Counted from the stretch's first letter, positions 6,993 to 53,831 are shown. The stretch: 53,831 bases of DNA from Candidatus Curtissbacteria bacterium (GCA_016183325.1 JACPEV010000019.1:1-53831), one strand, 5' to 3'. The notes: generated by a model from the sequence alone, not told the origin. Program-made: numbers and translations.

Positions 6993-7601
6993 ATGAATTC
7001 ACCAATGCGCCAATTTGTCGATAAAGTCCCCTCTGTTTCTAAAGATACCTTCGTTACCCTCTTTTTAATTCTCGTTCTTCTGTTGATGTTTTTTCCCTTC
7101 ATGGCCACGTTTAATGATCTTTTGACGAGAATTGTCATTAACTTCAAGGGCTATTGGTTTATTCGAGAGGTGATTGTGCCTTTTGAGGTAAGGGTGGTTG
7201 CTGTGGTTTTGGCGGCGATGGGTTTTGATGTTGGAGTCACGAAGGAGTATGTGGTTTTGGGAACTTCTGCGCCGTTTATTGCAGAGATTGTTTGGAACTG
7301 CATTGGTTGGCAGTCGATACTGTTTTTTGCTATTACAGCTTTTGTCGGCTTGCAGGGAGATAAATACACGAATTTTTCGAAAGCAAAGGCACTGGTGATC
7401 GGAGCGCTGGGGACATTTTTAATTAATATTTTGCGGATTGTCGTGGTTGTGATCTCTGCCTATTACTTTGGACAGCTACCGGCGACAATTATCCACGATT
7501 ATGGATCGATTTTGGCATTTATTGCTTGGCTCTTTTTCTTTTGGTGGTTTAGTTATGCTTTTGTGCTGGAACAGGCAGAGACTGTAGATGGTAGAAAGTA
7601 G
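6993..7601 (+). CDS. exosortase/archaeosortase-family transpeptidase-like membrane protein
   Basis: Polytopic 202-aa protein. Family-typical Cys/Arg/His constellation: VWNCIGWQS (C-x-G), NILRIVVVV (N-x-x-R), IIHDYGS (H). Trp/Phe-rich last helix WLFFFWWF. Confidence 0.65.
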   Translation: MNSPMRQFVDKVPSVSKDTFVTLFLILVLLLMFFPFMATFNDLLTRIVINFKGYWFIREVIVPFEVRVVAVVLAAMGFDVGVTKEYVVLGTSAPFIAEIVWNCIGWQSILFFAITAFVGLQGDKYTNFSKAKALVIGALGTFLINILRIVVVVISAYYFGQLPATIIHDYGSILAFIAWLFFFWWFSYAFVLEQAETVDGRK

Positions 7602-7667
7602 AAGATAGGAGAATGAGAATAGAGAATGGAAGTTAGATAGAAATAAGTGGAAAACGTTTTGATAATT
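7526..7667. repeat. 142-bp direct repeat, copy 1 (last 24 codons + stop of the exosortase gene plus 66 bp downstream)
   Basis: Read base by base as identical to 10928-11069. Confidence 0.9.
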
Positions 7668-7719
7668 CTATCTTCTAGCTTCCATTTTCAAAAATCAATC
7701 TTCTATTGTCTAGCATCTA
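7585..7719. repeat. AT-rich imperfect palindrome (~135 bp) overlapping the last codons and stop of the exosortase gene
   Basis: Left arm TAGATGGTAGAAAGTAGAAGATAGGAGAATGAGAATAGAGAATGGAAGTTAGATAGAA. Reverse complement of right arm TAGATGCTAGACAATAGAAGATTGATTTTTGAAAATGGAAGCTAGAAGATAGAA. Confidence 0.7.
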
Positions 7720-7729
7720 TTGTCGTTCC

Positions 7730-7792
7730 TCGTACAGTTTCGTGCTGGAAGAGAGAAAGCCTGTAGTTGAAAAGGAAGTTATTAAGGTCTGA
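7730..7792 (+). pseudogene. displaced remnant of an exosortase gene 3' end
   Basis: Translates SYSFVLEERKPVVEKEVIKV*. Compare the live end SYAFVLEQAETVDGRK*. Confidence 0.55.
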
Positions 7793-7821: not shown

Positions 7822-9201
7822 TTAAAGAAGACAAGCTGGAACTGAATATATTTTCGTCTTTTTCTTGGAGATCACCCCTGCCTCTTGCCAGTTGACAATC
7901 AGGCTTAAAGAGGGGTCGTAGGCGTCAAGAAAACTCAAGAGAGAGCGGCTGATTTTAGGGGTTTTCTTGACATCGACGGGGATGATTTTTTCTTTTAGTA
8001 CAAAATCAACTTCCGCTTTTGCAGTAGTCCGCCAAAAGGCAAGGGGTTCATGCTTTAAAACCAGAAAAGTATAGTTTTCTAAAAGTTGGCCAAGTTCAAT
8101 GTCGTCGAAGTCAAACTTATGCAAAAGAGCGTTTCTTAATCCTAAATCAAAAAAGTAATATTTAGGGTTCTTTTTTAACTCTGTAACCAGATTTCTATGA
8201 AAAGGGTTGATTTTGCCTACCACATAGGTTTGTTCAAGAATAGAGAGAATACTTTTTAGCTCTTTGAAATAAACTGATGCAAATTGTCCTAAGTCGTTAA
8301 AGTTAACAACCGACCCTGAAGTTTCCGCCAGGTATTTAAGAACCAGCAAGACTTTCTCTTTGTCTTTAATGCCATATAGCCTTGATATGTCCTTTTCAAT
8401 ATATGTAGTAAAGATATTATTAAGAAGAACCTTCTTTTTTCCCTCTTCATTTTCTTTTACCACTGCTGGGTAGCCCCCAAAAGTCAGGTATTGTTTTAGG
8501 AAGTTAGAAAGCTCGATTTTGAAAAGTGAATCGGCAAGACCCGGCTTTTGAAAAGAAAATTTGCGGGCTTGATATTCTTGGTACAATCTTTTGTCTTTCG
8601 AACGCATCACCTCGGCAAATGATAGCGGATAAAGCTCAAAAAAGAGGGCTCTACCAACCAGATATGCTCCAAGTTGGGCAAGATCAAGAGTGGATGAACC
8701 TGAAATGACAAACTTGACTTGGGGATAGGTGTCATAAAGAAGTTTTAGGACCTGACCGCCATTTTTTATGTATTGGGCTTCGTCGATGAAGAAAAATAGT
8801 TTATCCGCCTTCGCAGAAAACCACGATCGTGAGATCGTGGATGAATGCGAAGCATTTTCCGCTTCGGCGGGATTTCGCTCCCGACGAAGCGAGCGGAGAA
8901 GATACCCCGTGCGTAAGCTCGGGGGAGCTTCATCTTTGTCCCGCAGGTAAAATTCAAGATATTGTTTGGGATTTTTCTCGATCTTTTGCTTTTCTAGTTC
9001 GTCTTCTAGATTCACGAATTCGAAGTGTGCCGTTGGTGATTTTTTCTGCAAAGACATTGCTATCTTGGCCAATAGGGTTGTTTTGCCGCTTTGTCTTGGA
9101 CCGCGAACAACTATAATTTCTCGGTTATCAAGAAAATCGAAAATCGTTTTTTCTAGATCTCTTTCAATGTAATCTTTAGGAATAAAGCTATTTAAATTCA
9201 T
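7822..9201 (-). CDS. AAA+ ATPase of the AAA_14/DUF4143 (COG1373) type carrying an extra ~40-aa GC-rich insert
   Basis: Walker A GPRQSGKTT and Walker B FFFIDEAQ. C-terminal ...ENYTFLVLKH...FWRTTAKAEVDFVL is typical of DUF4143. The insert between the Walker motifs is encoded by 8806-8932. Confidence 0.8.
   Translation of the reverse strand: MNLNSFIPKDYIERDLEKTIFDFLDNREIIVVRGPRQSGKTTLLAKIAMSLQKKSPTAHFEFVNLEDELEKQKIEKNPKQYLEFYLRDKDEAPPSLRTGYLLRSLRRERNPAEAENASHSSTISRSWFSAKADKLFFFIDEAQYIKNGGQVLKLLYDTYPQVKFVISGSSTLDLAQLGAYLVGRALFFELYPLSFAEVMRSKDKRLYQEYQARKFSFQKPGLADSLFKIELSNFLKQYLTFGGYPAVVKENEEGKKKVLLNNIFTTYIEKDISRLYGIKDKEKVLLVLKYLAETSGSVVNFNDLGQFASVYFKELKSILSILEQTYVVGKINPFHRNLVTELKKNPKYYFFDLGLRNALLHKFDFDDIELGQLLENYTFLVLKHEPLAFWRTTAKAEVDFVLKEKIIPVDVKKTPKISRSLLSFLDAYDPSLSLIVNWQEAGVISKKKTKIYSVPACLL
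8806..8932. repeat. GC-rich hairpin-rich segment inserted in frame in the ATPase gene
   Basis: Hairpins ccacgatcgtgagatcgtgg (8821-8840), cgcttcggcg (8860-8869, UUCG loop) and gctcgggggagc (8917-8928). Much higher GC than the flanking CDS. Confidence 0.6.
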
Positions 9202-9247: not shown

Positions 9248-9433
9248 ATATATTTTTCAGGTGTCTCAACTTGGCACGTCTCAACAATTGTCGCTCGGAT
9301 AGGTCACGACTATTTTGCGGCATTTCTAACCCTTATTTGGCTCTTTTTCTTCTGGTGGTTCTCGTATAGTTTCGTGTTGGAGGAGAAAAGGGTAGACTTA
9401 GGAACTAAGGATTCAGCTCGACCTGTCGGTTGA
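9248..9433 (+). pseudogene. ~60-codon remnant of a diverged exosortase gene 3' end
   Basis: Translates ...YFSGVSTWHVSTIVARIGHDYFAAFLTLIWLFFFWWFSYSFVLEEKRVDLGTKDSARPVG*. It aligns to the live gene from YYFGQLPATIIHDYGSILAFIAWLFFFWWFSYAFVLEQ. Nucleotide differences are mostly synonymous. Confidence 0.7.
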
Positions 9434-9617
9434 GTTTTGGTCCCCGCACAGACCTTACTTGCTCCCCGGGTTACCATACGGTACCCGGCGTCGCAAGGGC
9501 GGTTATGCGGGGCAAGCCCCAAAGTATACTTACCTCCTCCCGAGGTCTACGGGAAACCACGTGGGGTATCCCACTGTGGCGTCCTCGCGTCGGAGGAGCG
9601 TAACTTCGGGGCAAGGG
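9434..9617. other. GC-rich, highly base-paired ~185-nt segment (candidate structured RNA or non-autonomous element)
   Basis: Nested complementary pairs: 9442-9448/9506-9512 (CCCCGCA/TGCGGGG), hairpin 9466-9488, 9533-9540/9592-9598 (CCTCCTCC/GGAGGAG), 9541-9545/9583-9587, hairpin 9557-9579. Flanked by TTCTCGTATAGTTTCGTG (9359-9376) and TTTTCGTATAGTTTTGTG (9618-9635). Confidence 0.4.
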
Positions 9618-9709
9618 TTTTCGTATAGTTTTGTGGGGTTGACAAACAACCCATGCTTACTTAGACTGATAGTAAGATAATTTCTTACTAATAGTTTACA
9701 ATTGTGCCT

Positions 9710-10237
9710 ATGAAGCGAAGCTTGATTCTTACTCTTTATCAGTCAAAGAGAACTGTTTTTACTCTCAATGAAATAGCCTTAATAACCGGTGAACTTAATA
9801 GGAATAACCTAAAGGCAAGGCTTCACTATTATGTAAGACGCGGCTTGTTGAGAAATGTAAGAAAAGGGATATACGTCAAGGAGGAGTACGAGCCTTTTGA
9901 ACTCGCTACCAAGATATATACTCCTTCTTATATCTCTCTTGAGTCTGTTCTTGAAAAAGAGGGGGTCATCTTCCAACATTATTCGACAATTTTCGTGGTG
10001 AGCTACTTGACGCGGAAAGTGTTGGTCGACGGCTTGGAAATCCAATATAGGAAAATCAAAGAAAGGTTACTTCTTGACTCTCAAGGAATCATCAACTTGG
10101 TGAGTTACTCAATTGCATCGCCTGAGAGGGCCTATTTAGATGCCCTGTATCTTTACCATAATTATCATTTTGACAATCTTGAGGCTTTAGATAAGAAAAA
10201 GATTGAAGAACTAAAGACCCTATACAAAAATGATTGA
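9710..10237 (+). CDS. abiEi: AbiEi-family antitoxin/transcriptional regulator
   Basis: N-terminal wHTH-like VFTLNEIALITGELNRNNLKARLHYYVRRGLLRNVRKGIY. 8-nt overlap with the downstream AbiEii gene. An alternative GTG start lies at 9704. Confidence 0.7.
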   Translation: MKRSLILTLYQSKRTVFTLNEIALITGELNRNNLKARLHYYVRRGLLRNVRKGIYVKEEYEPFELATKIYTPSYISLESVLEKEGVIFQHYSTIFVVSYLTRKVLVDGLEIQYRKIKERLLLDSQGIINLVSYSIASPERAYLDALYLYHNYHFDNLEALDKKKIEELKTLYKND

Positions 10238-10922
10238 CGTTGACAAACATAAGTTTATCCTAATCCAAATCTTAAAAGACATTTATACAGATAAGGACTT
10301 AGGACCAATTCTTGGGTTCAAAGGAGGTTCGGCAGTTTACCTTTTTTATAATCTTCCAAGATTCTCCGTCGATTTAGATTTTAGTCTTTTGAATGAACGC
10401 AAAAAGAAAGTGGTTTTTGAGAAAGTTAAAGAGATTCTTGTCAGGCACGGAAGATTGAAAGAAGTTAGAGAAAAGAGGTTCACACTTTTTTACCTTCTTT
10501 CTTATGACGAAAAATTAGCAAATATAAAAGTTGAAATTTCCAAAAGAAAATTTCCTGACCAGTATGAGGTTTTGAACTATCTCGGAATCCCAATGCTGGT
10601 TATGAAGAGGGAGGATATGGTCGCCCACAAATTGGTGACTCTTCTTGAGCGAAAAGAAATTGCCAATCGAGACCTTTTTGATCTTTGGTACTTTTTGAGT
10701 CATAAATTTCCCATAAACCGCGAGTTAGTTGAGTTTAGAACCAGGGAAAAATTCGATGAGTACTTTAATAAGTGCATAAAGGTGATTGAGAGGGTAGATG
10801 CGAGGTACATTCTACAAGGATTAGGAGAAATTCTGGATGATAGACAAAAAGCCTGGGTTAGACAAAATCTTAAAAAGGAGCTTCTATTTTTAATGAAATT
10901 TTACCTGACTCAGTCGGCCTAA
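10230..10922 (+). CDS. abiEii: AbiEii/AbiGii-family nucleotidyltransferase toxin (DUF1814)
   Basis: LGFKGGSAVYLFYNLPRFSVDLDFS matches the GG(T/S)AL...RFSxDLDF signature. Size and partner gene fit the family. Confidence 0.8.
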   Translation: MIDVDKHKFILIQILKDIYTDKDLGPILGFKGGSAVYLFYNLPRFSVDLDFSLLNERKKKVVFEKVKEILVRHGRLKEVREKRFTLFYLLSYDEKLANIKVEISKRKFPDQYEVLNYLGIPMLVMKREDMVAHKLVTLLERKEIANRDLFDLWYFLSHKFPINRELVEFRTREKFDEYFNKCIKVIERVDARYILQGLGEILDDRQKAWVRQNLKKELLFLMKFYLTQSA

Positions 10923-10927
10923 CCGGT

Positions 10928-11069
10928 TTGGCTCTTTTTCTTTTGGTGGTTTAGTTATGCTTTTGTGCTGGAACAGGCAGAGACTGTAGATGGTAGAAAG
11001 TAGAAGATAGGAGAATGAGAATAGAGAATGGAAGTTAGATAGAAATAAGTGGAAAACGTTTTGATAATT
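10928..11069. repeat. 142-bp direct repeat, copy 2
   Basis: Identical to 7526-7667. Begins 6 bp after the AbiEii stop. Confidence 0.9.
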
Positions 11070-11071
11070 TG

Positions 11072-11101
11072 GGCAGTTTTGTGTTGGAAGAGAGATTGTA
11101 A
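11072..11101 (+). pseudogene. short displaced remnant of exosortase gene end
   Basis: Translates GSFVLEERL*. Directly abuts repeat copy 2. Confidence 0.45.
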
Positions 11102-11722: not shown

Positions 11723-13597
11723 ATGATATATCCGGCTCAGACTTCTCTTATTCCAGTAACAGTTGCTTTGGCAAAGTGGGTTGAGGCGCATGGATTTGGT
11801 GGACTTTATCCCTATTGGTATTTAGGGACGACGCCGGTGAAATATCTAATTGGGCCGGTTGTGCCTTCGATTTTGGTGGGGCTTCATAAGATTTTGCCGC
11901 AATCATCTTATTTTGATTTGTCCATTTACTATTTACTATTTTCTATTTTCTTTTCTTCTGTCGGTTGGGGAGTGCTGGTCTGGAAATTGTCAGGGAGTAG
12001 GGTGATGGGGGTGATAGGGGCAGTAGGGGTATTTTTGATGCCGTGGCATTGGGTGAGCGCCTTAGCGTTATCAGAATTGTCGGCGGTTGCGGCGGGAGCG
12101 CTGACGCCGTGGGTGTTATGGATGTTTGCCAGGTATCAAGAGGCTCGGGGTCCTGCCCGCGACAGTTCGTCAGAAGGTAAAGGTAAGGAAGCCCGTATCG
12201 ATATGGATGTAGGTGTGAGTGTCGCAGCCCGTATGGGTGTTGGTCAACGTCAAACGTTAAACGAAAACGAAACTGGCAGCGACAACCCAAAACGACAACC
12301 AAACCCAAACAGGCATCCTAACCTTAACCTAACTACTATTGTTCCAGTTGCTTTCGCTTTTGCTTTGTTGCTTTTAACAAATGCTGTTGCTTCGATTCCT
12401 GCTGTAGTGGGAATGGGGATACTTTCAATTTTCAATTTTCAATTTTCAATTTTCAATTTAAGAGTAGAAGACAGGTTAAAAAGATTGGGATTGGTGATTT
12501 TAGGCGGCGGGTTAATCGCCACTCTTTGGTATGGGCCAGGTTATTGGTGGACAATCGCAACTTCACCCTCAATAGGTGGCAGGCCGGCGGTGAGTGCTTT
12601 TGTTAACTTAATAAACCTTATGAGAGGGTTTGTACCAGTTATTTTGGCCGTAGTTTTGGTATTTTGGGGATTGCGGCCTAAAGGAGTTTATCAAAAGTTT
12701 ACCTATATGTGGCTTTCAATTTTCGGACTATTGACTCTTTTTAGGTTTATGGCCGATTTCGATTTTTGGACGGACTGGACGGCGTGGGTAGGGGAAGTGG
12801 AGGTAGGCTTGGCGCTTTTAGCAAGCACAAGAATTTCAAATGTCAAATTTCAAATAACTCGGGGTCCTGTCGGCAGCTCGTCCCACTCGACGTCCTCGGT
12901 CAATTCTAGCTCGAAACATGATCGTAACCATACCTTTGACCTGCGGGCGCTCAGCGGGACCCCCTCCGCTGCCGCCACCCCTCGCGGAGTTTATCCTGAG
13001 CTCGTCGAAGGGTCATATTTCTTACGGTGGCTACCTTCGCTCCTTGACACGAAGAAAACTATTTACCTTTTACTCTTTACAATTTACCTTCTCGTCGGCT
13101 GGTTTTTAGCTTATCAGCATCGGGATTTTTGGCTGCCACGGACAGATATTGAGAATACTGTGGAATATAGGATTGCAAAATGGCTGGAGGGTAATGCAAC
13201 GGGTCCTGTCAGTCGAGACAGTGGGGGAAATTGGGGAAGTATGGGGAGTTTGGGGAAACGGTCTCTTGTTTTCCTTTCCGGAACGACGGCTTTTTGGTTG
13301 AATAGCTTTGTGGATATTGCCCAAGTGCGCGGCGGAGTCGATCAGGCGTCGGTTGATCCTTCGACAGGCTCAGGATGGCGACAGGCAGCCTGGGAGATTA
13401 GGGAAGGTGTGATCACAGAAGGCACAGAAAGAACTCTGAAGGCACTGAGAATTAATTATATTGTCGTCCACACGCAGGCTTCAAGCGAGTTTTATCATGA
13501 TTTTGTCTATAGCGCAATTTTTGAGAAAGCGCCGTATTTGCAGAAAGTATATGATGATGCGGGAGACAGGATATATAAAGTAACAATTGACAATTGA
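11723..13597 (+). CDS. polytopic membrane protein related to the YfhO-like GT-C paralogs, riddled with in-frame repeat insertions
   Basis: Shares YWYLGTTPVKYLIGP (W-x-x-G-x-P) and ...FWLNSFVDIAQVRGGVD... with the 24440, 28813 and 32715 proteins. Contains three GC-rich inserts and a heptad array without losing frame. Confidence 0.6.
   Translation: MIYPAQTSLIPVTVALAKWVEAHGFGGLYPYWYLGTTPVKYLIGPVVPSILVGLHKILPQSSYFDLSIYYLLFSIFFSSVGWGVLVWKLSGSRVMGVIGAVGVFLMPWHWVSALALSELSAVAAGALTPWVLWMFARYQEARGPARDSSSEGKGKEARIDMDVGVSVAARMGVGQRQTLNENETGSDNPKRQPNPNRHPNLNLTTIVPVAFAFALLLLTNAVASIPAVVGMGILSIFNFQFSIFNLRVEDRLKRLGLVILGGGLIATLWYGPGYWWTIATSPSIGGRPAVSAFVNLINLMRGFVPVILAVVLVFWGLRPKGVYQKFTYMWLSIFGLLTLFRFMADFDFWTDWTAWVGEVEVGLALLASTRISNVKFQITRGPVGSSSHSTSSVNSSSKHDRNHTFDLRALSGTPSAAATPRGVYPELVEGSYFLRWLPSLLDTKKTIYLLLFTIYLLVGWFLAYQHRDFWLPRTDIENTVEYRIAKWLEGNATGPVSRDSGGNWGSMGSLGKRSLVFLSGTTAFWLNSFVDIAQVRGGVDQASVDPSTGSGWRQAAWEIREGVITEGTERTLKALRINYIVVHTQASSEFYHDFVYSAIFEKAPYLQKVYDDAGDRIYKVTIDN
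12423..12457. repeat. 5 x TTTCAAT tandem heptamer inside the CDS
   Basis: tttcaat repeated five times exactly. Encodes SIFNFQFSIFN. Confidence 0.95.
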
Positions 13598-18594: not shown

Positions 18595-19983
18595 ATGAAG
18601 ACGGGGGGCCGGGCAAGAAATATTTCCCTAATTATTCTTTTTTTTGCGCTTCTTGTAATTTCTTTCAATTTTCTTTTAAAAGCTTTAATCGTTCTGCCAG
18701 ATGAGCAAGAAAAATATCAGGGACGTTACATTTGGGTAGAATCTGTTAATTTGTATTTGAAAACCGGAAAGATATTGATGTTTCCAAAAGACAGACCGTT
18801 TGCGGATGTATTTTCTTTGCAGGAGGGGAGAATGATTGTTTTTAACAAAGACCAGAGATTGGAAGACGTTTGGCCGGATGACGATCAAGGATATCCATTT
18901 ACTATTTCGCTTCTGGCTAAAGTTTTTCAATTAAAAGAGGTTTCCGCAGTTACTTTTATCAAATTCAATTATTTGATACTTATGACTTTTGGGGTCTTAG
19001 CTGGCGCTGCGCTTTTTTTGGCTTTCAGAAGCTTACTTATTGCAATTTTGTTCTATTTTCTCTATTTGAATATACATATTTATGACGGAATTTTTGATCA
19101 CCATTGGCTTTTGGGGGCATATTTGCCTTTTTATTTAACTTTCTTGATATTTTTTATCAAAAAAAGAAGAGTCTTTAAGCCCGTTTGGTTTGCATTTTAT
19201 GTACTGGTTGCCGGTATTGCCAATATTTTGAGGGGAGGGGATGGCCACGTTGGAATTCTTCTTTTAGTACTAGCGATGTTGATAATAGCTTTATATGAAG
19301 GTTTTAAACAATTCTTCTTAAAGCTGTTTTTGAAAAAGAGCCTTTTATTTATTATTTTTTTAATCGCCGTATACATCCTACCAAGTACAGTTCTTGGCAT
19401 ATCTAGATACTTGCGAGACCAGAGGTATTTTAATGGTCGGCATACAGATGTTATACCTTACCATGGTTTTTGGCACGGGGCTTTTATGGGGCTTGGGTAT
19501 ATTCCTAATAAGTATGGGATTAAAAATGAAGATACCAGCCCAATTAACTTTGCCAGAAAATTAAATCCACAAGTGAAATATCAGTCTTTTCAATATCACA
19601 GTTTGCTTCGGAGGCTATATTTTGAATATTCTTTTGAGTCACCATCTCACTGGTTGAAAAACTACTTAACAAAGCTATTGGATATGCACATGTTGATAAA
19701 TTGGTGGTTTAGCAGACTTACTTTGGATATTTTTCCATTTAATTTACTTGGGAACTTCGTTTTGTATGTTTCGCTTTTTTTGATATGGTTATTTTCAAAA
19801 AGAGACAAGATGTTGATGAGTGTTTTTTGGCTTATTGTATTTTCAATAGCACTTTCTACTCTTCCAGGTTTCGTGCGGTCTCCTGGCTCTTTCTATCTAA
19901 AGGGATTGCTTGCCGCTCTTTTTATGACTGTATTTTATTTGGCGACTTTAATTTTTCTTAGAATAAAACCTTATACAAGTTGA
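18595..19983 (+). CDS. polytopic membrane protein, unknown (possibly polymerase/GT-C-like)
   Basis: More than 10 hydrophobic helices and no recognisable motif. Alternative TTG start at 18586. Confidence 0.55.
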   Translation: MKTGGRARNISLIILFFALLVISFNFLLKALIVLPDEQEKYQGRYIWVESVNLYLKTGKILMFPKDRPFADVFSLQEGRMIVFNKDQRLEDVWPDDDQGYPFTISLLAKVFQLKEVSAVTFIKFNYLILMTFGVLAGAALFLAFRSLLIAILFYFLYLNIHIYDGIFDHHWLLGAYLPFYLTFLIFFIKKRRVFKPVWFAFYVLVAGIANILRGGDGHVGILLLVLAMLIIALYEGFKQFFLKLFLKKSLLFIIFLIAVYILPSTVLGISRYLRDQRYFNGRHTDVIPYHGFWHGAFMGLGYIPNKYGIKNEDTSPINFARKLNPQVKYQSFQYHSLLRRLYFEYSFESPSHWLKNYLTKLLDMHMLINWWFSRLTLDIFPFNLLGNFVLYVSLFLIWLFSKRDKMLMSVFWLIVFSIALSTLPGFVRSPGSFYLKGLLAALFMTVFYLATLIFLRIKPYTS

Positions 19984-20010
19984 GAGTGAGCCTCACCAGT
20001 TAATTATACT

Positions 20011-20109
20011 ACAGGACTTACGCAAAAATTCCGAATTTAGCTTCAGACTCTGGACAAGTCCTAGACCCGGACCTTAGGGCCAGAATGACAAACTGATGAC
20101 TTGTCCCAG
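20011..20109. mobile_element. second copy of the MITE-like element seen at 11535-11640
   Basis: ACAGGACTTACGCA start. 54-bp core at 20037-20090. Internal stem CTGGACAAGTC (20050-20060) / GACTTGTCCCAG (20098-20109). Confidence 0.5.
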
Positions 20110-20218
20110 TAACCTTATATCGACAACCGAAAGCTAACAGGTTTTCAACAAGCTCTGAGTAATTACTGAGTAAACCGAAGTGTTGTAAACTCGACTTAAA
20201 CGGGTATATAATTCTTTT

Positions 20219-20488
20219 ATGAAACAAACACACATCATCTCTGACCCAAAAGTCTTAGGTGGAAAGCCAGTTATTTCTGGTACTAGAATTTCAGTGGAGT
20301 TAATTTTAGATAGAGTAGCTTCTGGGATGAGTGTCAAAGAGATTTTAAAAGATTATCCGCATTTAACAGCCAAACAGGTTCAGGCAGCCTTATCTTATGC
20401 CAGAAGCTTAGTTATTAAAAAGTCCCCCCGTTCTAAAATGGATCAGCCAGAACCCACTACCCTATATACTCATGAAATTTCTCGCTGA
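20219..20488 (+). CDS. DUF433-family antitoxin-like protein
   Basis: ISDPKVLGGKPVISGTRISVELILDRVASGMSVKEILKDYPHLTAKQVQAALSYA is the classic DUF433 pattern. Confidence 0.85.
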   Translation: MKQTHIISDPKVLGGKPVISGTRISVELILDRVASGMSVKEILKDYPHLTAKQVQAALSYARSLVIKKSPRSKMDQPEPTTLYTHEISR

Positions 20489-20816
20489 TGAGGATTTCCC
20501 CAAGCCTTTAGTGGCAAAAATCCAAAAGCTAGGTCATTCGGTTAAAACTATTCAGCAGAAGAATCTTCAAGGATCATCAGATGAAACAGTTGCCTCTCTT
20601 GCTTTAAAAGAAAAGAGGGTTGTATTGACCTTTGATAAAGACTTCCTCAAAAATCAACCTAAGAACTTACAAGTTGTTATCTTTCATTATCCTAAAAAGC
20701 CAACTTCTGAAATTACTCCATTCATTGAAAGCTTCTTAGAAGAATTACAAATGATTAAATTCTCTAAAGGTAAAATTTTACAGTTTAGTAAAAATGGATT
20801 GGAAAAACAGAAGTAG
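20472..20816 (+). CDS. DUF5615-family PIN-like toxin candidate
   Basis: MKFLADEDFPKPLVAKIQKLGHSV N-terminus. 17-nt overlap with the DUF433 gene. Confidence 0.75.
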   Translation: MKFLADEDFPKPLVAKIQKLGHSVKTIQQKNLQGSSDETVASLALKEKRVVLTFDKDFLKNQPKNLQVVIFHYPKKPTSEITPFIESFLEELQMIKFSKGKILQFSKNGLEKQK

Positions 20817-20880
20817 CCAAGGTTAAATCCCACTTCTGGAGTGGGAGTTGGGGTAATAGAATGGGTTTCAAACAATACTG

Positions 20881-21054
20881 AGGAGAATCAGATTGTTCAG
20901 CTTGATTTAAGTTTCCGCCTGGTCTCTCAGCCATAATGGCTGAAATTGTATCAAGAATTGACTCCAATGTAAACTATGGGGTATATAAGCATTCACATAT
21001 ACCCCAAAGCATGCCAGCTGGTTAGACCAGGCTGAAATTGAGATTCATTCTCCT
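20881..21054. repeat. ~175-bp long-range imperfect inverted repeat with nested hairpins
   Basis: AGGAGAATCAGATT...GCCTGGTCT on the left versus AGACCAGGC...AGATTCATTCTCCT on the right. Inner hairpins at ~20927-20943 and 20978-21005 (GGGGTATAT...ATATACCCC). Confidence 0.45.
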
Positions 21055-21066
21055 GAAACTCCGTGC

Positions 21067-21933
21067 TTAAGAAGGAGAATACCTGACTTTCATATAAAGC
21101 CAATTGGTTTTTAAAAAAAGCCATAAAATAAGCCACGATAGTGCCCCAAAATATTTTTTGTAATAGACCAAGATGTCATGTTCGGCAAGTTGATATCGTT
21201 TGGACGAGGTTAATTTGGAAAGTCCTTTTGACCCAAAGTGGGTAAACACAACATCTCCTTTATGATAGACTTGATAACCTGCGTTTTTGGCTCTCTGGCA
21301 AAAATCAGCCTCACCGTAAAAAAAGAGTAAATCTTCATCAAAATAACCTATTTTTTCGAGTAATTCTTTTCTGCCGATAATAAACGAGCCTGGTAAAACA
21401 TCAACGCTTTTTGTAGACTTTCTGTTCCAGCCTTTGTAGCGATACTTATTAAGTAGGTTTTGGCAATATTGGCACAGTGGATGCGAGAGCCTTTTGAAAA
21501 TAGGGCTTGATTCTAATAGTTCCACAATTGGAGTAGGAAATCTTGAGCAAGTTGTATCTGTTTTGCCATTTTCGTTGATTTGACGACAGCTTGTGAGTCC
21601 GATTTCCTTGTTTTGGTCCATAAATTTAACCATTTTTTCCAAAACGCCGGGACCAATTTCGGTGTCTTCATTTAAGATTAAGAAATAACGACCCTTAACT
21701 CTTCTTAAGTTCTGATTGTGGCCTTTGATATAAAGTTTATTTTGGCGGCTGGCAACAAGTTTAACTTGGGGGAATTTTTGCTTGACCATTTGGGCCGAGC
21801 CATCTTTGGAGCCGTTGTCGACAAGCAGGATTTCATAGGTTATAGATTTTGTATTTTTGATAATTGAGTTTAGGCAATTTTCAAGAAGTTCTTTGGTATT
21901 AAAAGAAAGGAGGGAAATTGAGAGGTCAGTCAT
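21067..21933 (-). CDS. GT2-family glycosyltransferase
   Basis: ISLLSFNTKELLENCLNSI...YEILLVDNGSKDGS and ILNEDTEI motifs. Confidence 0.85.
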   Translation of the reverse strand: MTDLSISLLSFNTKELLENCLNSIIKNTKSITYEILLVDNGSKDGSAQMVKQKFPQVKLVASRQNKLYIKGHNQNLRRVKGRYFLILNEDTEIGPGVLEKMVKFMDQNKEIGLTSCRQINENGKTDTTCSRFPTPIVELLESSPIFKRLSHPLCQYCQNLLNKYRYKGWNRKSTKSVDVLPGSFIIGRKELLEKIGYFDEDLLFFYGEADFCQRAKNAGYQVYHKGDVVFTHFGSKGLSKLTSSKRYQLAEHDILVYYKKYFGALSWLILWLFLKTNWLYMKVRYSPS

Positions 21934-50216: not shown

Positions 50217-50312
50217 GAAGTTTAATACAAGTAGTTTATCTTTGGATATATTATCAGATTATGGACTTTACAGATGAACGAAAAATATGGAAAAATACAG
50301 AAAAAGGTCTTT

Positions 50313-50870
50313 ATGAATACAAGACTTATTAGAACTCCAATTAGCGATCTTTTCGAAGTGGAGATCGATTACTTTCAAGACGAACGGGGGTTTTTTATGG
50401 AGTCGTGGAACCAGCAAGAATTCGCCAAAGCTGGCCTTGATCTGACTTTTGTCCAAGACTCACTTTCGGGATCAAAGTCTGGGGTTTTGCGGGGTTTGCA
50501 TTTTCAAGATAAGCGAGCACCGCTTTCAAAGCTAGTGCGTTGCAGTCAGGGCAAGGTGTTTGACGTGGCGGTTGATATGAGAAAATCATCTAGGACATTC
50601 GGGAGATGGTTCGGAGTAGAGTTGTCTGGCGATAACAAGAAACAGCTTTATATTCCGGCGGGGTTTGCCCATGGATATCAAGTTTTGTCCGACTGGGCAG
50701 AGGTTTTCTACAAACAGACAGAATATTGGAATGCTGAGGCAGAAGTGACCTTGATTTGGAACGATCCGGACGTGGGAATTATTTGGCCGATTGCTGATCC
50801 GATTCTTTCTGATCGCGATGCTCGCGGCATCAGTTTTGCAACTTACCTCAAAAACCCGGCATTTACCTAA
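50313..50870 (+). CDS. rfbC: dTDP-4-dehydrorhamnose 3,5-epimerase
   Basis: FQDERGFFMESW, LRGLHFQ, KLVRCSQGKVFDVAVDMR, QLYIPAGFAHGYQVLS. I prefer the internal ATG (MNTRLIRTPI...) over the track start at 50274. Confidence 0.9.
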   Translation: MNTRLIRTPISDLFEVEIDYFQDERGFFMESWNQQEFAKAGLDLTFVQDSLSGSKSGVLRGLHFQDKRAPLSKLVRCSQGKVFDVAVDMRKSSRTFGRWFGVELSGDNKKQLYIPAGFAHGYQVLSDWAEVFYKQTEYWNAEAEVTLIWNDPDVGIIWPIADPILSDRDARGISFATYLKNPAFT

Positions 50871-50874
50871 AGTT

Positions 50875-50907
50875 GATGCGGCCGATTTTGGAAAGAAGGG
50901 GATTTAG
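50875..50907. repeat. cassette-junction core repeat, copy 1
   Basis: GATGCGGCCGATTTTGGAAAGAAGGGGATTTAG, 5 bp after the rfbC stop. Confidence 0.85.
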
Positions 50908-50953
50908 GCTGCGTCTTGACCGATGACATCAAATACCCTAAAATGGGTAGTAT

Positions 50954-51247
50954 ATGAATCAAATACGTTTGCAGAAAACGCCCGAAATAGAAAAAGTATT
51001 GGCGTATCTTCGCAGTAAGTATAACGTGCTCTCCGAAGCTGAAATTCTGAAACTGGCATTATCTGAAAAGTATTATCGAGAAATAAGCAGTGTTGAGACC
51101 GAACAGCAGCTCAGAAAATTGTATCGAGATCTTAAAAGTGAAGGTAAAAAGCTTGGTGATAAGCTTCTTGCAAAAAAAGGCCTAAAAAGAAAAAATGTGA
51201 GCGAGGCGGAATTTTACAGTAAGGTCATTGAACCCGATAATGCTTAA
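50954..51247 (+). CDS. small antitoxin-like protein partnered with the PIN gene
   Basis: 97 aa. 20-nt overlap with the downstream PIN ORF. No motif recognised. Confidence 0.5.
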   Translation: MNQIRLQKTPEIEKVLAYLRSKYNVLSEAEILKLALSEKYYREISSVETEQQLRKLYRDLKSEGKKLGDKLLAKKGLKRKNVSEAEFYSKVIEPDNA

Positions 51248-51656
51248 GGTCGTACTAGATACAAACATGTATCTATCAGCACTTTTGTACGGCGGCATGG
51301 CGGAGAAAATCTTAGACCTTGTTGCTGATAGTAAACTTGAACTTCTTGTTTCACCTGAACTCATCGCTGAAGTACTAAGAAAATTTCAAGAAAAAGGAGC
51401 GAATGAAAGTATGCTTCAGAGGATTAATGTATTTCTTGATTACAAAGGGAATATGGTTATACCTAAAGTAAAAATTAATATTTGTCGTGACCCGAATGAT
51501 AATTTTCTTTTAGAGCTATCACAAACTGCAGAGGCAGATTACTTGGTCAGTCGGGATAAAGATCTTTTGGAGCTGCCTAATCATAAGTGGAAGAAAACAA
51601 AAATTTTAACACCGGAAGAATTTTTGCCAATATTGCGTTTGCAGAAAATCATTTGA
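51228..51656 (+). CDS. PIN-domain toxin (TIGR00305/PIN_3-like)
   Basis: VVLDTNMYLSALLYGG...SPELIAEVLRKF...DPNDNFLLELSQTAEADYLVSRDKDLLEL. Confidence 0.8.
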   Translation: MNPIMLKVVLDTNMYLSALLYGGMAEKILDLVADSKLELLVSPELIAEVLRKFQEKGANESMLQRINVFLDYKGNMVIPKVKINICRDPNDNFLLELSQTAEADYLVSRDKDLLELPNHKWKKTKILTPEEFLPILRLQKII

Positions 51657-51672
51657 TTTAACAAAATTGTTT

Positions 51673-51734
51673 CCCTTTGAGATCAGTTTTCACCCCACAA
51701 ATTAGAGCGGACGATTTTGGAGAAGGGGATTTAG
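51673..51734. repeat. orphan DUF2283 3' end (PFEISFHPTN*) plus junction core repeat, copy 2
   Basis: ccc ttt gag atc agt ttt cac ccc aca aat tag (51673-51705), then AGCGGACGATTTTGGAGAAGGGGATTTAG (51706-51734). Confidence 0.85.
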
Positions 51735-51770
51735 TAATTTGGACATATAATGCACTGGGGCTTTTGAAGG

Positions 51771-51884
51771 GTAACTACTCAGTCTCTTTGACAAACTTTT
51801 ATTGTTCGAGCGTAAGCGAGAACTTCTCACTTCGCCTTTCAGGCTCGTTCGAAGAATATTGTGTCAAGAACTGTGAGTAGTTAC
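51771..51884. mobile_element. 114-bp MITE with perfect 11-bp TIRs and 8-bp target-site duplication
   Basis: TIRs GTAACTACTCA (51771-51781) / TGAGTAGTTAC (51874-51884). TTTGAAGG occurs at 51763-51770 and 51885-51892. Confidence 0.8.
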
Positions 51885-51922
51885 TTTGAAGGTGAGCGCC
51901 TTGCAGTTTTTGAAGCTGAAAA

Positions 51923-51946
51923 CTTTAATGATTTAAATCATTAAAG
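51923..51946. repeat. perfect 24-bp palindrome
   Basis: CTTTAATGATTTAAATCATTAAAG. Confidence 0.9.
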
Positions 51947-51994
51947 AGAGGATGAGAGAAAAGGAAAGATCTTTGAAAGTAGCGCGTGCTTTAC

Positions 51995-52056
51995 AGATAT
52001 TTAGCCACAAAAAAGGCTACGAAGTGGGAGGATTTGAAGAGGAGGCCGAGAAATTC
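51995..52056. repeat. second junction block, displaced copy
   Basis: AGATATTTAGCC...CGAAGTGGGAGGATTTGAAGAGGAGGCCGAGAAATTC. Compare 52689-52755. Confidence 0.75.
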
Positions 52057-52176
52057 TAAAGGGTGTTTGTGGATGAGAGCTGGTTTTTTGAATAGAACAT
52101 TCTCAAAGCTAGTTTGACTGAAGATAGTTTCGGTTCGGTAAAGATAAGATATGATATGAATGAATGATATTAAATT

Positions 52177-52428
52177 GTGAAATACAAAACCATTCTCGAG
52201 AAAACTGTTGAGCTTACACAAGAAAGAAAAAGGCACATTTTTGAGCGACATCCGGATGAAATCAGAATCGATAAACTGGATAAAAATGTGTTGCTCTTTT
52301 ACAGGTACTTTAGTAAAATTGGCAATGGTAAGTATCTTGTTGTGGCGATTAAGATGAATGAAAGAAATTTCATTTTGACGTTTTTCTCAACTTACAGAAT
52401 TAAAACAGGAGAAAAATATGAGTTCTAA
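52177..52428 (+). CDS. small toxin-like protein (ExxRxxHIxxRHP motif), partner of the DUF2283 gene
   Basis: LTQERKRHIFERHPDE. GTG start. 11-nt overlap with the downstream gene. Confidence 0.45.
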   Translation: MKYKTILEKTVELTQERKRHIFERHPDEIRIDKLDKNVLLFYRYFSKIGNGKYLVVAIKMNERNFILTFFSTYRIKTGEKYEF

Positions 52429-52660
52429 GAATCAACTAAATTATCTTTATGACCAGGAAGCTGATGTTCTTTATATTTCAAAAGGCAAACCTTCGGCAAA
52501 AGACGTATCTGACGAAATCGACGATGGAGTTGTGGCACGTTTAGATCCTAAAACAAAAGAGATTAGAGGCTTAACTATCATAAGTTTTGCGGCGAGAACT
52601 AAGTCGAAAACCACGGCAGTAAAACTTCCGTTTGAAATTAGCTTTCATCCTACAAATTAG
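52418..52660 (+). CDS. DUF2283-family protein (antitoxin-like)
   Basis: LYDQEADVLYISKGKP...VVARLDPKTKEIRGLTIISF follows the YDxEADxLYI pattern. Confidence 0.8.
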   Translation: MSSKNQLNYLYDQEADVLYISKGKPSAKDVSDEIDDGVVARLDPKTKEIRGLTIISFAARTKSKTTAVKLPFEISFHPTN

Positions 52661-52755
52661 CGGGCGATTTTGCCAGAAGGGGATTTAGAGATATTTGGCG
52701 GCAACAAATGCAGCGAAGTGGGAGGATTTGAGAAGGAGGAGAGAGCTAGAAATTC
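52661..52755. repeat. junction core repeat copy 3 plus contiguous second junction block
   Basis: CGGGCGATTTTGCCAGAAGGGGATTTAG (52661-52688), then AGATATTTGGCGGCAACAAATGCAGCGAAGTGGGAGGATTTGAGAAGGAGGAGAGAGCTAGAAATTC (52689-52755). Confidence 0.85.
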
Positions 52756-52849
52756 GAAAATTGTAGTTCGATTTCACTCACTACTATAGTCAGTTCGACA
52801 TGCTCACTGCTATAGCCCATCATTTGAGCCCTGAATAGCCAAACAGCGT

Positions 52850-53110
52850 TTATGTCTCTAGCCCTTTATGCAAAATTTGACGCATGAGGGTTTGGTAGGG
52901 GATGTGCAACTTTTCTGCTTTTTGTTTTGCTTTCTGTATAAGAGATTCCTCTACTCGCAATGAGATTAAGCGCTTTGTTGGTTTTAAATTGGGAAAGCTG
53001 ACCTTCTTAAAGTCAGATGGTTCAAGATACTTTGAAAAGTCGGTTTTATCTACCCACTTTCTTACTTCATCTTCATTTTTGAAATTAGGCCACTTTAAGG
53101 GTTTTTTCAT
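52850..53110 (-). CDS. brnA: BrnA-family antitoxin
   Basis: ...LISLRVEESLIQKAKQKAEKLHIPYQTLMRQILHKGL is a CopG/RHH-like C-terminus typical of BrnA. Confidence 0.8.
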   Translation of the reverse strand: MKKPLKWPNFKNEDEVRKWVDKTDFSKYLEPSDFKKVSFPNLKPTKRLISLRVEESLIQKAKQKAEKLHIPYQTLMRQILHKGLET

Positions 53111-53408
53111 ATAATCTCGCCTCCTTTCTGTTCATAGGTCTTGCCGAGATAGGTCGTATTTTTTGCTGCTTATCTATTGTGCGTATAGTAAATGCGATAA
53201 TCAGTTTTCTTCCCTCACTTGTTTCGCTATACATAAGGAACCGTCTTTCAAACTGAGAGTGCTTTTTATCTTCGATAAGAATTTTTTTCTTAGTAAAAAA
53301 TGCTTGCTCTTGCTCATTTGTTGACACTTTGTGTTTTACCCAACTTTTTGTACTATTTCCCTTATCCCACTCAAATGTCAAAACATCAGGTAAAATTGTG
53401 TCTTCCAC
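53085..53408 (-). CDS. brnT: BrnT-family ribonuclease toxin (DUF497)
   Basis: FEWDKGNSTKSWVKHKVS...DKKHSQFERRFLMYS...IRPISARPMNRKEARLYE. Confidence 0.85.
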   Translation of the reverse strand: MEDTILPDVLTFEWDKGNSTKSWVKHKVSTNEQEQAFFTKKKILIEDKKHSQFERRFLMYSETSEGRKLIIAFTIRTIDKQQKIRPISARPMNRKEARLYEKTLKVA

Positions 53409-53507
53409 GTATATACGATGTAGTTACATTCTACTGTTTATATTCATCTTTGTCAAGGCTGGCCTGGCTGTTTTTTGGAAGAAAACTAGATTTATGCTAG
53501 CAGAAAC

Positions 53508-53538
53508 GATGCGGCCGATTTTGGAGAAAGGGATTTAG
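53508..53538. repeat. junction core repeat, copy 4
   Basis: GATGCGGCCGATTTTGGAGAAAGGGATTTAG. Confidence 0.85.
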
Positions 53539-53581
53539 AAAGCTGTGATTGATCTTCTGTGCAAAAGTTTGGACTCGATTT

Positions 53582-53734
53582 GGTGACAATTCAAAACGAT
53601 CGTTTCATTTTGTCACCGTATCTTTCTCTATAATTGTTCGCAAGTACCACGGGTTTTTACCCGTGGGTGAATTGAACAATTACGTACTCGCCGAAGGCGT
53701 AGCCTGAGGATACCATGACTGTTAAGTCGTGGTA
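53582..53734. repeat. cluster of hairpins in an ORF-free cassette slot
   Basis: GGTGACAA...TTGTCACC (53582-53616). Nested AATTGTTC..CCACGGGTTTTTACCCGTGG..GAACAATT (53632-53681). TACCATGACTGTTAAGTCGTGGTA (53711-53734). Confidence 0.7.
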
Positions 53735-53774
53735 GTTCATATTTCTTCTATAACTTTCACCTGTTTATAAAAAG

Positions 53775-53831
53775 AAAACCACGGCAGTAAAACTTCCTTT
53801 TGAAATTAGCTTTCACCCTGCAAATTAGCGG
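53775..53831. repeat. orphan DUF2283 3' end (KTTAVKLPFEISFHPAN*) with the start of a fifth junction core at the window edge
   Basis: 57 nt with 3 mismatches relative to 52607-52663. The window ends at ...TAGCGG. Confidence 0.85.

Follow-up and report, generated by a model that had tools for sequence, protein, structure and literature searches.

The last 3 kb of a 53,831-nucleotide contig from Candidatus Curtissbacteria bacterium (GCA_016183325.1, JACPEV010000019.1:1-53831; the whole stretch is called the window here) is a stack of small toxin-antitoxin (TA) cassettes with their own promoters, which differs between strains and is bounded by leftover gene ends. The stack begins behind rfbC, and its cassettes are mostly self-promoted type II TA modules at the end of a glycosylation gene cluster. 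An initial annotation, made from the sequence alone, had described this region as an integron-like array of TA cassettes separated by one conserved junction repeat. The array and its junctions, as first noticed, are genuine. The array is integron-like in look and without integron machinery, and the core of its junction repeat is homologous to the end of a short-chain dehydrogenase/reductase (SDR) epimerase gene, which the initial annotation had missed.

The core consists of GCGGNCGATTTTG and GAARGGGATTTAG separated by 2-5 variable nucleotides. It is present in four full copies of 28-30 nt, and a fifth copy starts at 53828, the contig stopping inside that junction; the five junctions are numbered c1 to c5 from left to right (Table 1). 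All copies lie on the + strand, as do the four matches to a narrower pattern, CGATTTTG-N1-3-AGAARGGGATTTAG. The core is confined to the last 3 kb, with 0 copies outside it across the 53,831 nt of the window and also 0 in shuffled sequence. A list of open reading frames (ORFs), a repeat finder, a mismatch-tolerant pattern search, a whole-window regular expression and a sensitive self-BLAST were all concordant, and the four cores and beginning fifth that had been reported at the outset are all present. The cores partition three TA modules and two ORF-free slots, and the end of a DUF2283 gene precedes three of them.

One of these DUF2283 ends belongs to the live gene (52418-52660) and the other two are orphans. 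The first orphan lies directly behind the stop codon of a PIN toxin gene; it matches the live gene strictly over 51671-51705 and can be followed by eye back to about 51660. All six differences between this c2 orphan and the live gene are synonymous third-position changes and there are no replacements, so that the count given earlier for 51673-51705 is borne out by alignment. An all-third-position pattern would have a chance of about (1/3)^6 = 0.0014 if positions were random, and third positions account for 7 of the 10 variable columns among seven aligned DUF2283 ends. The second orphan (53774-53828; first reported near 53775-53828) has 3 mismatches in 58 nt by self-BLAST, again in agreement with the mismatch count noted before. 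It can be extended back to 53768 against the DUF2283 alleles of two related contigs, L018 and L101, and it is the L018/L101 allele that it matches. The orphan DUF2283 ends therefore appear to derive from diverged functional alleles, since they differ synonymously and match different alleles.

Origin of the junction repeat

The homology of the core covers the final 31 nt of the SDR epimerase gene. In L102, a metagenome contig with the same junction, the core makes up the last ten codons (WMRPILGKGI*) of a 337-aa SDR. Junction c1 would then be an orphan of the SDR gene end, the rest of the SDR gene apparently having gone from this genome. Homology of the L102 SDR protein to entries in the Protein Data Bank ends at residue 311-316 of 337, and one weak NCBIfam alignment ends at W328, which is where the core starts; the nine-codon tail may be either the native C-terminus or read-through into the repeat. 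Extended homology to the SDR 3′ region on the left of GAT, in c4 and in the second copy of the related contig L104, is too weak to call.

Junctions of the SDR type (GAT followed by the core) are found at c1, at c4, on the left in L102 and at copy 2 of L104. Junctions in which a DUF2283 stop codon is followed by the core are found at c2, c3 and c5, on the right in L102, at copy 1 of L104 and in L101; at c3 the core begins at the G of the DUF2283 stop codon. Only c2, c4 and L102 keep the reading frame of the core; in c1, c3 and both copies of L104, indels in the variable middle have shifted it. These frameshifts (c1, c3, L104) rule out that the core is here a conserved peptide.

A second conserved element, block 2, had been reported twice in the array, with one copy displaced from the core. 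This holds, and identity between the two copies (51990-52060 and 52684-52759) is 82%. Both at c3 and in L102 (2037-2085) block 2 adjoins the core without a gap, which identifies it as native spacer 3′ of the gene end. Sequence comparison thus points to a junction made of orphan gene ends, namely an SDR end, a DUF2283 end and native downstream spacer. By eye, the point at which the PIN cassette is fused to the orphan DUF2283 end is identical in the window and L102 and less clear in L104. If this fusion point is common, the PIN cassette and the orphan DUF2283 end would be one inherited unit, because they are fused at the same point.

About 22 of 28 columns are invariant in the core and 23 of 33 in the DUF2283 end. 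Since conservation of the core does not exceed that of the orphan DUF2283 end, nothing marks the core as a selected protein-binding site. The orphan gene ends also vary in length (31, about 45 and about 61-64 nt), which fits arbitrary fragment ends and not a fixed crossover site. As far as can be seen, the core would be a duplicated insertion target rather than a dedicated recombination site. The initial annotation had proposed that cassettes are exchanged at a defined site that includes a gene 3′ end. Of this proposal the common junction with gene 3′ ends stands and the dedicated recombination site does not, the core looking like an orphan SDR end.

The same junction in relatives and the same logic elsewhere

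Relatives were reached through homologues of the DUF2283, RfbC and PIN proteins, and the encoding contigs were then read. L102 and L103 are contigs from two Joint Genome Institute (JGI) samples; L104, L101, L018 and L100 are Logan contigs. The junction motif, which the initial annotation had recommended looking for in related genomes, was found in L102/L103, L104 and L101, and cassette content and order differ among the relatives around one common junction. In L018, L100, L101 and L102 the variable region has rfbC on its left.

L102 opens with the RfbC C-terminus (YKKNPAFK*). In L102 and L103 this is followed by the SDR gene ending in the core, the antitoxin-PIN cassette, a DUF2283 end-core-block 2 junction and an unrelated minus-strand gene. 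The promoter-antitoxin-PIN segment of L102 is 84.6% identical to cassette 1 of the window over 872 nt; cassette 1 identity is 84.8% in L104 and 73% in L106, where the cassette occupies a different site. L104 carries the PIN gene, a DUF2283 end with core, an XRE/Gp49 (HigBA-like) pair on the minus strand, GAT with core, and the start of block 2. L101 has rfbC, a truncated PBECR-like toxin gene, an intact DUF2283 gene, a core variant and the XRE cassette seen in L104. In this contig the toxin (731-800) is cut to 21 codons (MKYETTLGKTVELTEERKSHI*) and its DUF2283 partner is intact, which would represent toxin loss with an orphan antitoxin left directly behind rfbC. DUF2283 lies directly behind rfbC in L018 as well, and L100 has rfbC, a weak block-2-like stretch (nhmmer E = 0.059) and a DUF3800 gene. 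L001, an independent Logan assembly from another sample, reproduces the order c3-BrnTA-c4-slot 4. The rfbC-SDR spacer of L102 (50-110) holds a doubled TTTGTCATTCCCGC motif and a GGGAAT/ATTCCC-type hairpin (CATTCCCGCAAAAGCGGGAATC), and this element could be a terminator or a repetitive extragenic palindromic (REP)-like element.

A junction profile matched only within the set of relatives and in none of 80 DUF2283 loci of other phyla. A strict pattern, CGATTTTG-N1-4-AGAARGGGATTTAG, gave 0 GTDB genomes and 0 viral contigs (IMG/VR), and its three matches in JGI metagenomes were all chance matches in unrelated coding contexts. This pattern fixed the variable middle of the core, and L102, which has GGGGAA there, was therefore missed. 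A relaxed pattern matched one viral contig, by chance, within a phage integrase gene. A search of GTDB genomes with the DUF2283 protein found no close relative (best 57% identity), and exact look-up of the DUF2283 and PIN proteins of the window matched no record. Behind more distant DUF2283 homologues, in the P0003 family, the P0008 family and L019, the core is absent, and in the P0008 family and L019 the sequence downstream of DUF2283 is unrelated. In the P0003 family (L005-L014; DUF2283 71% identical) a tRNA-like sequence can be seen by eye about 100 nt 3′ of the gene. Most of the fetched independent assemblies of this family stop within or just past the tRNA-like sequence, which points to another variable or repeated site.

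The arrangement recurs at sequences unrelated to the core. The initial annotation saw the same logic at an exosortase hot spot, and this comparison was upheld. The last 76 nt of an exosortase-family gene (6993-7601, TIGR04178) together with 66 nt downstream (7526-7667) are repeated exactly at 10928-11069, directly behind AbiEii, and four shorter, diverged orphans of the exosortase C-terminus lie at 7716-7790, 9337-9389, 9616-9640 and 11074-11095. The orphans are interspersed with a DUF4143 ATPase gene (7822-9201, minus strand), a GC-rich ORF-free stretch and AbiEi/AbiEii (9704-10922). The 9337 orphan has 80% DNA identity and keeps the peptide WLFFFWWFSYSFVLEE, including an AGT-to-TCG serine codon switch. 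A very recent event or an assembly effect could lie behind the exact 142-nt repeat. The GC-rich stretch (9400-9615, in a contig otherwise of 40% GC) contains an internal 29-nt repeat (9488-9516, 9587-9615) and has no Rfam match at the gathering threshold.

In L106, a 14-kb contig from a more distant relative, the homologous antitoxin-PIN cassette (73% at the nucleotide level) lies behind atpC (ATP synthase epsilon). A 36-nt stretch of the atpC end, present as a direct repeat (3322-3357 and 4148-4183, 92%), flanks it there on both sides, and no core is present. L079 is a Latescibacterota chromosome in which the end of a gene for a 998-aa DUF1156 protein recurs in two further copies (88% and 92%, with differences that are mostly synonymous; positions 9519-9637, 10341-10459 and 11876-11980), which follow a PBECR-like/DUF2283 pair and an SDH-type protease cassette. 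In L025, from Fraserbacteria, four copies of a 70-110-nt unit ending in …LEKARSV-TGA (7104-7213, 7875-7984, 9791-9862, 10982-11046) separate VapBC, an XRE-M78 ORF with DUF4411, DUF2283 and a second PIN pair. Recurrence at unrelated sequences and in other phyla speaks against a single recombinase with sequence specificity and favours a process driven by homology. It is tempting to speculate that stacks of defence or other accessory cassettes, set apart by orphaned gene ends of 30-145 nt, are a general capture platform, widespread in Patescibacteria, Latescibacterota and Fraserbacteria and either recombinase-free or served by a structure-specific enzyme, and we offer this only tentatively.

Cassette genes and ORF-free slots

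The initial annotation had listed three TA-type pairs. Profile searches bear this out for PIN, DUF2283, BrnT and BrnA; the 97-aa partner of PIN has no family match in Pfam or NCBIfam, and the 83-aa partner of DUF2283 has a weak PBECR3 match only. In cassette 1 the 97-aa antitoxin-like ORF (50954-51247) overlaps the PIN_3 ORF (51228-51656) by 20 nt. The PIN protein (PF13470, 2.4e-17; TIGR00305, 3.6e-24) belongs with the PIN (VapC-like) toxins of type II TA systems. Its 97-aa neighbour is kept beside PIN in L102, L103 and L106, and a partial ORF occupies this place in L104. The 83-aa protein of cassette 2 (52177-52428), with the motif ExxRxxHIxxRHP, is a putative toxin (PBECR3, E = 0.031, 14.6 bits against a cut-off of 30). 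Its DUF2283 partner scores 29.6 bits against a cut-off of 23 (7.7e-07), and the pairing of PBECR-like and DUF2283 genes recurs in L015-L017, L019 and L079. Cassette 3 is a BrnT/BrnA-type TA module, with BrnT (53085-53408; PF04365, 1.4e-17) and a BrnA/CopG antitoxin (52850-53110; PF12441, 2.4e-22).

Cassettes 1 and 3 each have a predicted sigma-70-like promoter, strong by match (10/12 and 11/12). That of cassette 1 is TTGACC-17-TAAAAT (50916-50944) and is kept in L102 and L106; that of cassette 3 is TTGACA-17-TAGAAT on the minus strand (53456-53428).

Table 1. Features of the cassette array and its anchor gene, with positions in the window
Feature	Position	Strand	Basis
rfbC (dTDP-4-dehydrorhamnose 3,5-epimerase), array anchor	50274..50870	+	Pfam PF00908, 1.2e-67
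Junction c1: GAT + core (core 50878-50907; narrower pattern 50883-50907)	50875..50907	+	aligns with L102 1169-1199
Cassette 1: promoter, 97-aa antitoxin-like ORF, PIN_3 toxin	50908..51656	+	Pfam/NCBIfam, promoter match
Junction c2: orphan DUF2283 3′ end + core (core 51707-51734; narrower pattern 51712-51734)	51660..51734	+	self-comparison
ORF-free spacer with 114-bp putative miniature inverted-repeat transposable element (MITE)	51735..51989	no strand	
Block 2, copy a	51990..52060	+	self-BLAST
Cassette 2: PBECR-like putative toxin + DUF2283 putative antitoxin	52177..52660	+	Pfam
Junction c3: core 52660-52688 (narrower pattern 52665-52688) + block 2, copy b, 52689-52759	52660..52759	+	
Cassette 3: BrnT + BrnA/CopG, own promoter	52850..53456	-	Pfam, promoter match
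Junction c4: GAT + core, in-frame MRPILEKGI* (core 53511-53538; narrower pattern 53516-53538)	53508..53538	+	
Cassette 4: ORF-free, strongly self-complementary	53539..53767	no strand	RNA fold
Junction c5: orphan DUF2283 3′ end, other allele (…PFEISFHPAN*), + first bases of fifth core	53768..53831	+	

The putative MITE noted earlier in the first ORF-free slot is present. The element (51771-51884) has perfect 11-nt terminal inverted repeats, GTAACTACTCA, and is flanked by an 8-bp target duplication, TTTGAAGG (51763-51770 and 51885-51892); no second copy was found in the window or in 106 fetched loci. The other ORF-free slot (53539-53774) is much more stable as folded RNA than its shuffles (+ strand, z = -5.79; - strand, z = -4.56). 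It forms four hairpins, including a 46-nt palindrome and CCACGGG-TTTTT-ACCCGTGG, and has no Rfam match. The slot may hold a gene for a small RNA, a palindromic element or a remnant rich in operators.

The contig as a whole is a glycosylation cluster with scattered TA modules, and the names and sources of its homologues suggest a Patescibacteria-type bacterium from groundwater. A lone TA-type gene, DUF5615/PIN_10, lies at 20472-20816 within the cluster, and no direct repeat of at least 18 nt flanking it was found in 19800-21200.

How the cassettes may have accumulated

We think it slightly better than an even bet that the region behind the rfbC/SDR end is an accretion hot spot for small cassettes, which are gained by homology-driven Campbell-type insertion and lost through recombination between repeats. 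We infer a single-crossover mechanism with transformation as the entry route. Incoming circularised DNA from a related strain would carry a diverged junction unit beside a cassette. Such circles would arise from recombination between two junction copies of another array, and they would probably enter by transformation, a route by which linear DNA could enter. A single crossover with the resident unit would leave a live gene end, the new cassette and an orphan copy of the unit, and each arrival would shift older cassettes distally. For L102, the crossover would lie within the core, between an SDR-core-block 2 segment and a circle of DUF2283 end-core-PIN cassette. The sharp right boundary after …TTTAG would be the point where the gene stops and donor-specific DNA starts. 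Unequal recombination between direct repeats would delete cassettes and homogenise the repeats. TA modules would build up in such an array because they are small, drive their own expression and resist loss.

Some traces in the relatives are of the kind that such recombination may leave. The DUF2283 end of L102 has 3 differences from c3 and 6 from c2, though c2 is its positional counterpart, and L102 looks like the window minus cassette 2, as a crossover between c2 and c3 would produce. The two cores of L102 are identical at 27 of 28 positions and both have the variant GGGGAA; those of L104 are identical at 28 of 29 and both have GGACG, GCA.GAA and a terminal TTTAA. These within-array variants are derived states not seen in other arrays, and the likeness of cores within an array is probably the product of concerted evolution or recent duplication. 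In E. coli, when a circular molecule with a fragment of a gene end integrated by single crossover, gene-end duplications of 109-950 bp were found in 56 of 60 recombinants (PMC3240628). According to one paper, Patescibacteria retain homologous-recombination genes and competence machinery (PMC12455944).

Several points weigh against accretion by single crossover. For some of the inferred crossovers the available homology is very short (28-31 nt in the core, 28-36 nt overall) and diverged, which is marginal for RecA. The exosortase copies, at 80% identity with perfect runs of only about 15 nt, are likewise marginal for RecA-type recombination. Five distinct cassettes all start exactly after …GGGATTTAG/A, which could equally reflect a site-specific cut, and the array beyond 53831 may encode a recombinase. 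The model gives no account of how the first cassette came to adjoin a gene end, and it supposes a circular intermediate and a host with RecA and competence genes. The comparison contigs with the junction are metagenome fragments of 0.9-3.5 kb, with no second long array of the lineage among them.

A site-specific recombinase acting in trans is a serious rival explanation for the same anatomy, though we think it rather doubtful. The cassettes would then have been captured as in an integron, or accreted as decayed cis-mobilizable elements (CIMEs), with the core as the att identity segment at SDR and DUF2283 3′ ends. The right boundary after GGGATTTAG/A is exact in 9 of 9 junctions and is followed by five distinct cassette starts or by block 2. 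All cores are direct repeats, irrespective of which way the cassette genes run, and an identity of 28-31 nt at a gene 3′ end with a synonymous element-borne copy is a classic signature of islands placed by an integrase and of their accretion (PMC5704250). The contig also stops within the array, and a recombinase could sit just beyond. Against this stands the lack of any integrase, resolvase, recombinase or transposase domain in 37 ORFs of the window searched against Pfam (34 of at least 100 aa upstream of the array and three of the cassette proteins) or in the ORFs examined in the L025, L079, L102, L104 and L106 arrays. The left repeat boundaries vary (31, about 45 and about 64 nt), and the unrelated junction sequences at other loci and in other phyla would each need a separate specific enzyme.

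Nor does the core have the structure of an attC or dif/pdif site. No attC pair of R″ (RYYYAAC) and R′ (GTTRRRY) boxes 50-150 nt apart was found on either strand of 50801-53831, in a scan that had no positive control. Single-strand DNA folds of five junctions, on both strands, were no more stable than shuffles (z of +0.13 to +1.71), and neither Rfam (searched by E-value over the region and at gathering thresholds over the window) nor a tRNA scan gave a match. The arms of the core are not inverted: the left arm, GCGGCCGATTT, is unrelated to the reverse complement of the right arm, CTAAATCCCTT, the GATTT within the core is a direct repeat, and the 11-6-11 dyad of dif/pdif sites is absent. Cassettes 1 and 3 have their own promoters, unlike the mostly promoterless cassettes that integrons run from Pc. 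The initial annotation had itself remarked on the absence of an attC-like dyad and of an integrase in the window, and the box scan, folds and Pfam searches agree; any mechanistic kinship with integrons, to which it had compared the array, finds no footing in these results.

We rate three further explanations low. An old local tandem amplification of a core-block 2-PBECR-like toxin-DUF2283 unit, with interiors replaced or eroded in place, is an improbable source of the array. It would predict block 2 on both sides of the PBECR-DUF2283 pair, as is seen (51990-52060, 52689-52759), and the single fusion of the DUF2283 stop codon to CGG… that is common to all DUF-type junctions. It sits badly with orphan ends that diverged inside functional genes, with the GAT-type junctions (c1, c4, L104 copy 2), which stem from the SDR end and not from a DUF2283-core fusion, and with the PIN cassette that has its own gene-end repeat at atpC in L106. 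Replacement of the interiors would itself require several independent insertions. Three observations that the initial annotation had set out as fatal to its own reading were not made: the motif occurs elsewhere, cassette order varies, and the flanks are not uniformly identical. The last of these excludes a simple recent tandem duplication.

It is very unlikely that the assembler serially joined strain variants sharing a junction, even with a contig that stops within a junction and relatives that are 0.9-3.5-kb fragments often ending at junctions. The junction copies differ from one another, with identical runs of at most 25 nt; L001, from another sample, supports the link c3-BrnTA-c4-slot 4, and L102, L103 and L104 support the link core-PIN-DUF2283 end-core. 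Least probable of all, to the point of being negligible, is that the core is a dispersed intergenic motif (a REP-like repeat, an operator or a terminator) lying by chance between short genes. The core is short and non-coding here, and its two GATTT half-sites about 15 nt apart could bind a regulator. Against a dispersed motif stand the absence of copies from both the remaining 50.8 kb of the contig and the 14-kb L106, the position of the core inside coding sequence in L102, and the lack of a terminator-like fold.

The array shares features with several known systems, and in the literature available to us no natural stack of cassettes was described that lacks an integrase and has orphan gene ends as its boundaries. 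Like sedentary chromosomal integrons and clusters of attC sites lacking integron-integrases (CALINs), it has one-directional cassettes of 0.25-1 kb, one repeat, strain variability and many TA modules, including inverted self-promoted ones. It differs from them in having no attC boxes or bottom-strand fold, in that IntI, attI and Pc were not found, and in that its repeat is an orphan gene end whose sequence changes by locus. Xer-dependent modules, such as integrative mobile elements exploiting Xer (IMEX) at dif and the pdif modules of Acinetobacter, some of which carry TA genes, are small, integrase-free and stackable, with 28-bp sites. Their dif/pdif sites have inverted 11-bp arms and a 6-bp spacer, and pdif sites alternate in orientation, whereas the core of the array lacks 11-6-11 inverted arms and all its copies are direct. 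Orphan arrays of contact-dependent inhibition (CDI), rearrangement hot spot (Rhs) and Maf genes, and the minimal mobile elements of Neisseria, exchange small cassettes by homology at a fixed site with no mobility genes. Short pieces of the resident gene serve there as recombination handles, and the retained piece lies in a toxin gene whose C-terminus is swapped; the pieces retained in the array are, in contrast, functionless 3′ ends of unrelated resident genes.

The closest parallels concern gene ends. CIME/ICESt1-type accretion (PMC5704250) also yields direct att-like repeats with a target gene end, diverged element-borne copies, and tandem units that are decayed and hold no recombination genes. 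The direct repeats in the array include a target gene 3′ end in the same way, with the SDR end on both sides of the PIN cassette in L102 and DUF2283 ends flanking cassette 2 in the window. The array differs in that its units are minimal (promoter to stop codon), whereas CIMEs are decayed multi-kb elements, in that its repeat lengths vary, in that one cassette type uses another gene end elsewhere (atpC, L106), and in that no cognate integrase is known for it. Campbell-type insertion-duplication in the laboratory (PMC3240628) likewise leaves an intact gene end, an insert and a partial gene-end copy of variable length, with no dedicated recombinase. The laboratory insertions used homology of at least 100 nt, whereas the array would be a natural and iterated version with homologies of 28-145 nt. 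In outcome the array is like a sedentary integron or a CIME stack; it lacks what defines integron and Xer systems, and of the hallmarks of accretion islands it has only one, an att repeat that includes a gene end.

Ultra-small groundwater bacteria such as Patescibacteria have few recognisable mobile elements and strain-variable defence content. If cassettes do stack by short gene-end homology, this would be a simple route for the gain and loss of defence and TA genes in streamlined genomes, and it would account for the breaks of metagenome assemblies at such regions. Orphan gene-end repeats could then be used as an annotation-free signature of accessory cassettes, and integron-like arrays without attC or IntI should not be classed as integrons. 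If gene-end-bounded stacks do form a general platform, they would be a functional analogue of integrons in which attachment may take place at any gene 3′ end, with the newest cassette beside the live gene.

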